Positions 14,391-16,628 of a stretch of DNA of 64,000 bases are shown in pieces. The stretch comes from an uncultured delta proteobacterium (GTDB taxonomy: Bacteria > Desulfobacterota > BSN033 > UBA1163), in the NCBI GenBank assembly GCA_963708295.1, contig CAVPSJ010000015.1, positions 128,001 to 192,000 on the forward strand, read 5' to 3'. The first letter of the stretch is position 1, and every line of letters begins with the position of its first letter. The translations under genes were made by a program, and so were the position numbers. The notes beneath the pieces are model-generated. The model saw nothing but the letters and a program-made list of their open reading frames with translations. It was not told where the DNA came from and did no database searches.

Positions 14391-14807
14391 ATGAGGCGCT
14401 TTGAGATCTTGGATCATACGGCGGATATCGGTATTATCGTCCATGGCGAGAACCTCAAGAGGCTTTTTGAGAATGCGGGGGAGGCTTTTTTCCGTCTCAT
14501 CACCGATTTAAGAAAGGTCAAAGGTCGGATCGAGAGGCGGGTGAATATCGGAGCAGAGAGTTTGGATCGGTTGATGGTAGATTGGCTGAGCGAACTTCTC
14601 TACCTTCACGACGTCGAGAATCTTCTCTTTAAAGGGTTCAACGTCGACTCCGTCGGGGAGGACGGCTTGAAGGCTGCTGTGAAGGGGGAGCCGTTTCAGG
14701 AGGGGGTCCATGTGATCAAGACGGAAGTGAAAGCCGTGACCTACCACCAGATAGAAGTTCGACAGGAGAAACGGGGCTGGAGAGCTCAGGTCATCTTGGA
14801 TCTTTAG
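14391..14807 (+). CDS. Archease
   Basis: FEILDHTADIGI, LFENAGEAF, DWLSELLY, EVKAVTYH, C-terminal VILDL. Confidence 0.96.
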   Translation: MRRFEILDHTADIGIIVHGENLKRLFENAGEAFFRLITDLRKVKGRIERRVNIGAESLDRLMVDWLSELLYLHDVENLLFKGFNVDSVGEDGLKAAVKGEPFQEGVHVIKTEVKAVTYHQIEVRQEKRGWRAQVILDL

Positions 14808-14915
14808 TTAGGACGGTCAAGAATATCTCCAAAGTTTTGCAAATGCAAAACTTATCCGACATCGTTGCCCGTCCTTTGCACCGGGACAATGTGCTCACTC
14901 CTTCCCTTCGGAAGG

Positions 14916-15144
14916 GAGACTGTGTCACAATGGAACGTCTGAGGGGAGAGGCAGTCGGGTTCCAAAGCTTTAGAACGCGGGTCTTTTAGGAATGGGGAAC
15001 CGTCGTTGGCTAAAAATCGAATGTGTTCATATGGTTGGCGACCCTGAATCCAAACGGTTATAAAGGTTGCCGCTCTAAATCTTCTCCACCCGACCGCCTT
15101 TCCCCTTTTTTGAAAAGCGTGTTTTCATATTGCGACACAGCCTC
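14916..15144 (+). mobile_element. MITE family A, copy 1 (AGG duplication)
   Basis: TIRs GAGACTGTGTCACAAT / ATTGCGACACAGCCTC; AGG on both flanks; nearly identical to 51018-51247. Confidence 0.9.
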
Positions 15145-15173
15145 AGGGGGGAAAGGAATAGATAGGAGTACCC

Positions 15174-16628
15174 ATGTCTGATCAAGAGAAAATCAAGATA
15201 CAGAAGATAGATGATTACCGGTGGAGAATTCCCCGGGAAGGAAAGATGAGGACCGATGGGGTGATCTATGCCGACGAGCGGTTGTTCAACGACATCCGGA
15301 AGGACCAGAGTCTGACCCAGGTCGCGAATGTCGCATGGCTTCCGGGTATCGTGGGCCATTCCCTGGCGATGCCGGATATCCATTGGGGTTATGGCTTTCC
15401 TATCGGGGGCGTGGCGGGCTTCGACATGGATGAAGGAATCGTTTCCCCCGGAGGGGTGGGTTACGACATCAATTGAGGTGTCCGTTTGATGCGCTCAGGT
15501 CTGAGCCGCACGGACGTTCAGGGAAGAATGAAGGAATTAGTGGAGGCCCTCTTCGTCAACATCCCTTCAGGCGTAGGTTCTCACCGGAAGGACCTCAAGC
15601 TGAACCGGGAGGAGGAACGGCGAGTTTTAAAAAAAGGAGCCCGGTGGGCCGTAGAAAAAGGGTTCGGCTCAGCGGAAGATCTTGACCACATCGAGGAACA
15701 CGGCCGCATCGAGGGAGGCGATCCGGACCGGGTCTCTGAAAAAGCGATGGAAAGAGGCAGAGCCCAATTGGGGACGCTGGGCTCGGGGAATCATTTCGTT
15801 GAGGTGGGGTACGTGGCGGAGGTTCTTGATGAGTCCGTCGCTCGATCGTTAGGGCTCTGGAAGGATCAGGTCACGGTGATCGTCCATACCGGTTCAAGGG
15901 GTTTGGGTCACCAGGTTTGCGATGATTACATCCGGGTCATGCTCGATGCAGCCAGGAAATACCAGATTGAACTTCCAGACCCCCAGCTCTGCTGTGCCCC
16001 TTTGTCTTCGCCGGAAGGGAAGCGGTATCTCGAGGCCATGGCCTGTGCGGCCAATTTTGCTTTCACCAATCGGCAGATGATCACCCATTGGGTGAGGGAA
16101 ACATTTGAGCAAGTATTCCGAAAGGGCCCCCGGGATCTTAAATTAGATTTGATCTATGATGTCTGCCACAATATTGCAAAGATTGAAACCCATACGGTGA
16201 ATGGAACAAAGAAAAAGCTCTGCATCCACAGGAAAGGTGCGACGAGAGCCTTTCCTCCAAACCATCCCGACCTTCCCTCGGATTACCAATCGACCGGCCA
16301 GCCCGTCCTCATCCCGGGGGATATGGGGAGATGTTCGTATGTTTTGGTGGGGACGGAAAAAGCGATGGAAGAGACCTTTGGGAGCACCTGTCATGGAGCG
16401 GGCCGGGTGATGAGCCGGCATCAGGCCGTGAAGGCAGCAAGGGGGAGAGCGATCGTCAGGGAACTGGAAGATAAAGGGATCATCGTCAAGGGTGCGAGTC
16501 AAGGGACCCTTGTGGAGGAGATCCCCGACGCCTATAAGGATGTGAATGATGTCGTGAATGTAGTCCACCGGGCCGGCATCAGTCGAAAAGTGGCAAAGCT
16601 CGTCCCCCTGGGGGTGATCAAAGGATAG
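15174..16628 (+). CDS. rtcB: RNA ligase RtcB, predicted selenoprotein (Sec at codon 101)
   Basis: Track ORFs 15174-15476 and 15486-16628 share a frame: [63 protein letters not shown] all intact. Confidence 0.93.
15480..15515 (+). promoter_or_regulatory. Putative bacterial SECIS hairpin of rtcB
   Basis: Lower stem GTCCGT/ACGGAC; upper stem GCTCA-GGTC-TGAGC; apex CAGGTCTG equals the apex of the E. coli fdhF SECIS. Confidence 0.82.

Follow-up and report, generated by a model that had tools for sequence, protein, structure and literature searches.

What does a stop codon mean in the middle of an otherwise complete gene for an RNA ligase? The question is raised by a window of 64,000 nucleotides (nt) from an uncultured delta proteobacterium (assembly GCA_963708295.1, contig CAVPSJ010000015.1, positions 128,001 to 192,000), in which rtcB carries a single in-frame TGA. 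As the universal 3'-phosphate RNA ligase, RtcB takes part in the splicing of tRNA and XBP1 and in RNA repair in bacteria; selenocysteine (Sec) is the closest chemical analogue of cysteine (Cys). We find that rtcB is very probably an intact selenoprotein gene in which, to judge from its sequence, a selenocysteine insertion sequence (SECIS) directs Sec to the position of the metal-bridging Cys. The UGA stands where homologues have Cys, a SECIS-type hairpin follows it, and the genome encodes tRNA-Sec, SelA, SelB and SelD; codon and hairpin are conserved among relatives, many anaerobic bacteria included, and the codon alternates with Cys codons only.

Is the protein an RtcB if the stop is read through? 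The open reading frame (ORF) that begins with ATG five nt behind an AGGAG Shine-Dalgarno sequence (15174-15476) terminates at TGA 15474-15476, and the frame then stays open until TAG 16626-16628. Translation table 11 splits the gene at the TGA into ORFs of 100 and 380 amino acids (aa) in one frame; decoding the TGA as Sec (U) gives an RtcB protein of 484 residues with U at residue 101. Pfam family PF01139 matches residues 49-484 of this product over profile positions 1-426 of 426 (E 1.7e-180). Solved RtcB structures match the U-containing protein too, Thermus thermophilus 2epg with E 4.4e-184, Pyrococcus horikoshii 7lfq and 1uc2 with about E 1e-178, and the RtcB chains of the PDB overall with E 1e-143 to 4e-184. 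In the alignment with these structural homologues the TGA codon falls on Cys98 of P. horikoshii RtcB (U101=Cys98), and the remaining five residues that bind metal or act in catalysis are kept: D98=Asp95, H207=His203, H238=His234, H332=His329 and H407=His404, the correspondence being counted by hand from the alignment. The protein thus has the full-length profile match and five of the active-site residues of the family, with TGA rather than TGY as the codon for Cys98, and is presumably an RtcB variant with Sec at that position.

The active-site passage of a 2023 review states that Cys98 ligates both Mn ions, that Ala in place of the equivalent Cys kills the ligase, and that Asp95, His203, His234 and His329 are metal ligands and His404 the guanylylated residue (P. 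horikoshii numbering). A 2025 paper, where it deals with the RtcB active-site Cys, calls it 'invariant' and oxidation-sensitive, and passages in reviews describe the active-site Cys of human RTCB as oxidation-sensitive too. A first-pass annotation made from the letters alone had claimed one in-frame TGA at the Mn-bridging Cys, intact motifs elsewhere, a two-stem hairpin directly behind the TGA, a neighbouring archease gene and an oxidation-sensitive human counterpart; the ORF readout, the alignment and these publications bear it out, as do the hairpin and archease results below. NCBIfam holds no selenoprotein-specific RtcB model, and its best matches are generic or intein-type RtcB below cut-off. 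As a separate observation, the intein-RtcB model breaks exactly at residue 100 (N100-U101, 15471-15476). The residue that is Sec or Cys is also where intein-containing RtcB is spliced, and the RtcB passages of PMC4150793 give Cys98 as the splice junction in P. horikoshii RtcB.

How widely is the TGA shared? Among 41 related genomes rtcB is found in 38, and 35 of the 41 matches, in 34 genomes, contain exactly one TGA; four of the 38 have uninterrupted forms only. One genome of the same genus has two TGA-rtcB copies (G010:C1:2028919-2030361 and G010:C1:160725-162167). Of 401 genomes sampled evenly from the phylum, 326 have an rtcB match, and one TGA stands in 47 of 150 among the matches listed, from 13 family codes. 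We then read the codon itself. Of 146 loci fetched, some of them twice, the motif was located in 143 (138 distinct 54-nt sequences): 61 have TGA, 64 TGC and 18 TGT, proportions that are not frequencies because 20 loci were chosen for having TGA, and TAA or TAG stands at that codon in 0 of the 143. Likewise, a scan of one genome per species with degenerate DNA for G-[Y/F]-D-I-N-TGA-G-V found at least 119 stretches. Eighty of these loci were fetched and 79 are rtcB-like, L200 being the exception; the C-terminal part reaches at least 370 aa in 59 of the 80, and many others run off the contig end. By their labels the 80 belong to Thermodesulfobacteriota (23), Nitrospirota (19), Acidobacteriota (14), Myxococcota (7), Binatota (2), Eiseniibacteriota (1), Gemmatimonadota (1) and Pseudomonadota (1), with 12 unlabelled; the labels come from record titles, most of the Myxococcota are legacy 'Deltaproteobacteria' names, and labels of metagenome bins are fallible.

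These counts bear on the reading that standard annotation applies by default, that the gene is broken or split and yields either a dead fragment of 100 aa or that fragment together with a 379-aa product from ATG 15489, the two assembling. Public gene callers do treat rtcB in this way. Of the 120 best short relatives that the N-terminal piece has in a large protein collection, 118 terminate with ...DIN; 35 of the best 120 matches to the whole protein are 379-aa products beginning MRSGLS, and the pieces are named 'tRNA-splicing ligase RtcB' or 'hypothetical protein'; rtcB is thus routinely split in public annotation, as the first-pass annotation had foreseen. We consider a broken or split gene very unlikely nonetheless. 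In 61 of 61 cases the stop is TGA and sits at the codon used elsewhere for Cys, genomes 49-93% identical keep the two halves in the same frame and free of other stops, the active site needs both halves (Asp98 and residue 101 from one, the His residues from the other), the constraint on the RNA described below tracks the TGA, and the genome has the Sec machinery. The marks of a pseudogene, namely varied stops, decay of the frame and lack of RNA constraint, are absent; there is only TGA, at a single codon.

Does the RNA behind the TGA look like a signal for Sec insertion? In the window a lower stem (15483-15488/15511-15516) carries an upper stem (15490-15497/15502-15510, with one bulged C) closed by the loop GGUC at 15498-15501, the apex at 15496-15503 being CAGGTCTG; the upper stem-loop spans 15490-15510, and the hairpin folds with -16.6 kcal/mol. 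The consensus model of a bacterial SECIS in section 5 of the 2026 review of the prokaryotic selenoproteome (PMC13188914) has a loop of 3-9 nt with a G in the first two loop positions, an upper stem of 4-16 base pairs, a spacing of 16-37 nt between UGA and loop, and a free energy of -7.5 kcal/mol or lower. With its GGUC loop, 21-nt spacing and -16.6 kcal/mol the hairpin of the window fits all four constraints, as do 55 of 60 distinct TGA sequences compared with 26 of 78 Cys sequences. In a second measure, presence was defined as a fold of -6 kcal/mol or lower in the 24 nt at +16 to +39: 59 of the 60 TGA sequences have such a hairpin, with loop starts at +24 to +26, and 12 of the 78 Cys sequences reach that energy, 10 of them with a loop at +24 to +26. 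Eight of those 10 have the G-rich loop of the Sec type, among them L022 and L026 from the genus of the window and four f15 Cys loci that lie beside Sec forms. An Rfam scan of 13800-18600 returned three sub-threshold chance matches and no SECIS family, and a scan for promoters and terminators found sites no more numerous than in shuffles.

The significance of the hairpin comes from comparison with relatives, not from this single sequence. Across TGA genes the entropy at third positions of codons +5 to +11 is 0-1.25 bits, whereas the invariant codons for Gly, Val, Arg, Leu, Ser and Pro that flank them in the same genes are saturated (1.5-1.95 bits) and Cys genes show 1.6-2.0 bits at codons +5 to +11. 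Arg at +6 is CGC in 59 of 60 TGA genes, Leu at +9 has G as its last letter, likewise in 59 of 60, and Ser at +10 is AGC in 50 of 60. This freeze of synonymous sites, found in TGA genes only, points more clearly than any other sign to selection acting on the RNA. With fixed columns 89.5% of cells are paired, compared with 25-41% for slid controls, and in variant stems the register of pairing is shifted; the stem of the main clade is for the most part conserved and not covarying.

Among the pattern-scan loci, 70 of 80 fit the SECIS constraints and the hairpin comes in three designs. The first has the GCGCUCA...UGAGC-CGC stem of the window. The second, in L171, L173, L182, L205, L217 and L242, has quite different stem letters and encodes quite different amino acids, with a loop of the G-G-U type in the same place. 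In the third, from Nitrospirota, the stem is longer and lies farther downstream, and the loop often lacks G; eight of the ten loci that fall outside the constraints are of this design. The loci labelled Nitrospirota include L175, L177, L178, L183-L185, L191-L193, L213, L216, L237 and L245, eight of which depart from the consensus SECIS, and their hairpins may form an atypical SECIS class.

Can the organism make and insert Sec? In the source genome we find a tRNA-Sec (81.4 bits against a cut-off of 47; anticodon tca by ARAGORN), selA (625 bits), selB (353 bits) and two selD genes (381 and 375 bits), all above curated cut-offs. Each selD has itself one in-frame TGA (G000:C17:66608-67531 and G000:C4:371872-372792, both outside the window), which indicates Sec-containing selenophosphate synthetases. 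Among the 34 genomes with TGA-rtcB in the related set of 41, 28 have a tRNA-Sec, as do both of the Acidobacteriota genomes examined and three of five genomes from other phyla (a Nitrospirota, a Binatia and an Eisenbacteria). A reassigned code was considered and rejected: among 40 long ORFs in the window 17 end with TGA, more than with any other stop, so the code is standard.

Might UGA be read as Cys or another standard residue, if tRNA-Sec is mischarged, a near-cognate tRNA decodes the codon or the Sec system is a variant that recodes UGA as Cys? Cys is functional at this site, since 82 of the 143 loci have TGC or TGT and the two residues have changed places repeatedly, and the identity of the inserted residue is predicted from sequence. 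Readthrough of this kind is nevertheless very unlikely: selA and the two selD genes, needed only for Sec or selenophosphate, are intact, both selD genes carry the in-frame TGA just described, and a plain TGC would suffice without the cost of a selected SECIS. How often Sec and Cys have changed places was estimated on a FastTree tree of the 143 RtcB sequences with the variable residue masked. All 61 Sec forms fall within one clade of 101 rows (support 98), and at least 13 Sec/Cys changes are needed, at least five of them forced by well-supported branches, so the residue has switched repeatedly. In the genus of the window two Cys forms (L022/L067 and L026) retain the hairpin, which a recent change of a single base would be expected to leave in place.

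Several observations weigh against a selenoprotein, and the first concerns the TGA itself. It was checked in contigs of related strains rather than raw reads of the source; no sequencing run contains more than 0.34 of the sampled words, and the runs supply contigs of relatives only. This leaves some room for a sequencing or assembly error in the source genome, which we regard as exceedingly unlikely: dozens of assemblies made independently have this TGA, and among the differences listed for the related-strain contigs, drawn from four public runs in four studies, none falls on 15474-15476, while the neighbouring synonymous site 15473 varies among the same contigs. A contig from an RNA library (X20, record 13, 15415-15577) spans the TGA and is no demonstration that the gene of this organism is transcribed. 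Taken alone, moreover, the hairpin is not exceptional (z = -1.9; 10 of 200 shuffles fold equally well), and the 26 Cys sequences that fit the SECIS constraints show how permissive these are. In the fixed-column test of the 60 TGA sequences both sides change in only one of seven pairs, and the covariation score of 0.066, compared with 0.050 in shuffles, is reached by 8 of 500 shuffles. An independent-pairs test of hairpin against TGA, underpowered with five pairs, gave about three concordant and none opposed (p about 0.25). A tRNA-Sec was not found in six of the 34 TGA genomes, which are 73-99% complete, nor in a Magnetobacterium or a Gemmatimonadales genome, for which part of the candidates was scored. 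An engineered Sec98 RtcB spontaneously cleaved a nearby peptide bond, as the RtcB passages of PMC4150793 report, so that Sec cannot simply be assumed to be harmless at this site.

Set against these points, the first-pass annotation had named three findings that would speak against Sec: TGT or TGC at the codon in reads, a genome without Sec machinery, and relatives without the TGA and hairpin. None of the differences listed for the related-strain contigs falls on the codon, selC, selA, selB and selD are all detected, and the relatives too have TGA there, in alternation with TGC or TGT, and a hairpin at the same distance.

If rtcB is a selenoprotein gene, SelB with GTP and Sec-tRNA(Sec) would bind the hairpin while the ribosome stands at UGA101, and Sec would be inserted to give the 484-aa RtcB. 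The selenolate of Sec101 would replace the thiolate of Cys98 and, with Asp98, His207, His238 and His332, hold two divalent metal ions; the co-transcribed archease would assist the guanylylation of His407, and the enzyme would seal RNA ends bearing 2',3'-cyclic phosphate or 3'-phosphate to ends bearing 5'-OH. Both the insertion of selenium and any benefit from it are what we infer, and the same holds for the selenolate-bridged metal centre and the link between RNA repair and selenium supply that the first-pass annotation proposed. The benefit of Sec would probably be that of a ligand, always deprotonated, softer, and oxidised reversibly rather than irreversibly. Given that RtcB chemistry has no redox role for Sec, the likeliest gain is a metal site that withstands irreversible oxidation, or one that prefers a different metal. 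When selenium is absent translation would stop after 100 residues; the supply of ligase would then depend on selenium, and a selenium dependence of RNA repair would be the consequence.

We put forward a wider view tentatively, as possible rather than probable when taken as a whole. Sec-RtcB would be an unreported, old and widespread selenoenzyme of RNA repair, spread over at least six phylum labels with at least three SECIS designs, in which Sec serves as the non-redox bridging ligand of a two-metal site. It would be kept as protection from the irreversible oxidative or metal-induced inactivation against which animals have to guard the same Cys with PYROXD1, and it may shift metal use.

Is such an enzyme already on record? 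Searches of the open full-text literature found no description of a natural Sec-RtcB, and a prior listing in supplements is possible. The main text and table of the 2026 review (PMC13188914) contain no RtcB, ligase, splicing, PF01139 or COG1690, and the same terms are missing from the main text of the BSepDB paper, whose list of 111 families sits in the supplement. The RtcB passages of PMC4150793 name no natural Sec form.

The partner gene lies where it does in most relatives. The archease product matches PF01951 over its whole length (E 1.4e-44, residues 4-138) and NCBIfam NF001617 with 134.8 bits (cut-off 126). In 54 of 61 Sec loci an archease gene immediately precedes rtcB on the same strand, and the other seven have no upstream sequence; an archease gene lies upstream in 66 of 82 Cys loci too, making 120 of 143 overall. 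Among the remaining 23, 12 have insufficient upstream sequence, and in 11 Cys loci with at least 700 nt upstream there is no archease match. Archease is a conserved upstream partner of rtcB. The genes around the pair, collected in the table, may form a stress or repair neighbourhood.

Features of the rtcB locus and its neighbours (window coordinates)
Feature	Position	Strand	Remarks
rtcB, RNA ligase	15174-16628	+	484 codons including one UGA (predicted Sec101); Pfam PF01139
In-frame TGA, predicted to be read as selenocysteine (U101)	15474-15476	+	Equivalent to P. horikoshii Cys98
Bacterial SECIS-type hairpin within the rtcB coding sequence	15479-15520	+	21 nt past the UGA
Archease gene, activator partner of RtcB	14391-14807	+	138 aa; Pfam PF01951
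Rubrerythrin-like protein	13147-13596		Neighbour of archease-rtcB
FlK-type thioesterase	13926-14342		Neighbour of archease-rtcB
DUF1786	16714-17739		Neighbour of archease-rtcB
O6-methylguanine-DNA methyltransferase	17889-18452		Neighbour of archease-rtcB
CheR-type methyltransferase	18442-19254		Neighbour of archease-rtcB

Archease and rtcB are separated by 366 nt, an unusually long spacer that contains a repeat of about 245 nt (14914-15158). Its ends, CTGTGTCACAAT ... ATTGCGACACAG, are inverted by eye, and the repeat therefore resembles a miniature transposable element. It has 27 matches in the genome to which the window belongs, an internally deleted copy follows DUF1786 (17775-17906), and the related-strain contigs have 156 other letters in place of 14806-15185 and very high depth over the repeat.

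A natural Sec/Cys pair that has switched repeatedly would supply matched enzymes in which protection by selenium, metal choice and the breakdown seen with engineered Sec98 can be compared. It would add a non-oxidoreductase to the selenoproteome. In syntrophs, sulfate reducers, Nitrospirota and Acidobacteriota the repair of RNA would be tied to the supply of selenium, and many RtcB database entries in these groups would be wrongly split.

How does this RtcB compare with known systems? With Cys-type RtcB (PH1602, structures 1uc2, 4dwq and 7lfq; TTHA1785, 2epg; human RTCB) it shares fold family, length, the His and Asp residues of the active site, the archease partner gene and, presumably, the ligation of 3'-phosphate to 5'-OH ends dependent on guanosine triphosphate (GTP) and metal; it differs in that the metal-bridging residue is encoded by UGA with a SECIS and is presumably Sec. 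The P. horikoshii RtcB U98 of Haruna et al. (2014) has Sec at exactly the same position; according to the RtcB passages of that paper (PMC4150793) it was man-made through UAG and EF-Tu and self-cleaved, whereas the form described here would be natural, SECIS-directed and conserved across species. With the bacterial selenoprotein genes that carry a SECIS within the ORF, as outlined in PMC13188914, rtcB shares a UGA aligned with Cys of homologues, a 4-nt loop starting GG, 21-nt spacing and an energy below -7.5 kcal/mol. It likewise shares their dependence on selA, selB, selC and selD, but its host enzyme is an RNA ligase and not an oxidoreductase. Formate dehydrogenase and [NiFeSe] hydrogenase have Sec as a metal ligand. 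A metal-binding Sec has also been proposed for SaoB, SaoC and UXX-star in the passage on these proteins in the 2026 review (PMC13188914). With all of these RtcB would have Sec as a metal ligand in common; they serve redox reactions or metal resistance, whereas RtcB carries out nucleotidyl transfer at a two-metal centre that has been described with Mn.

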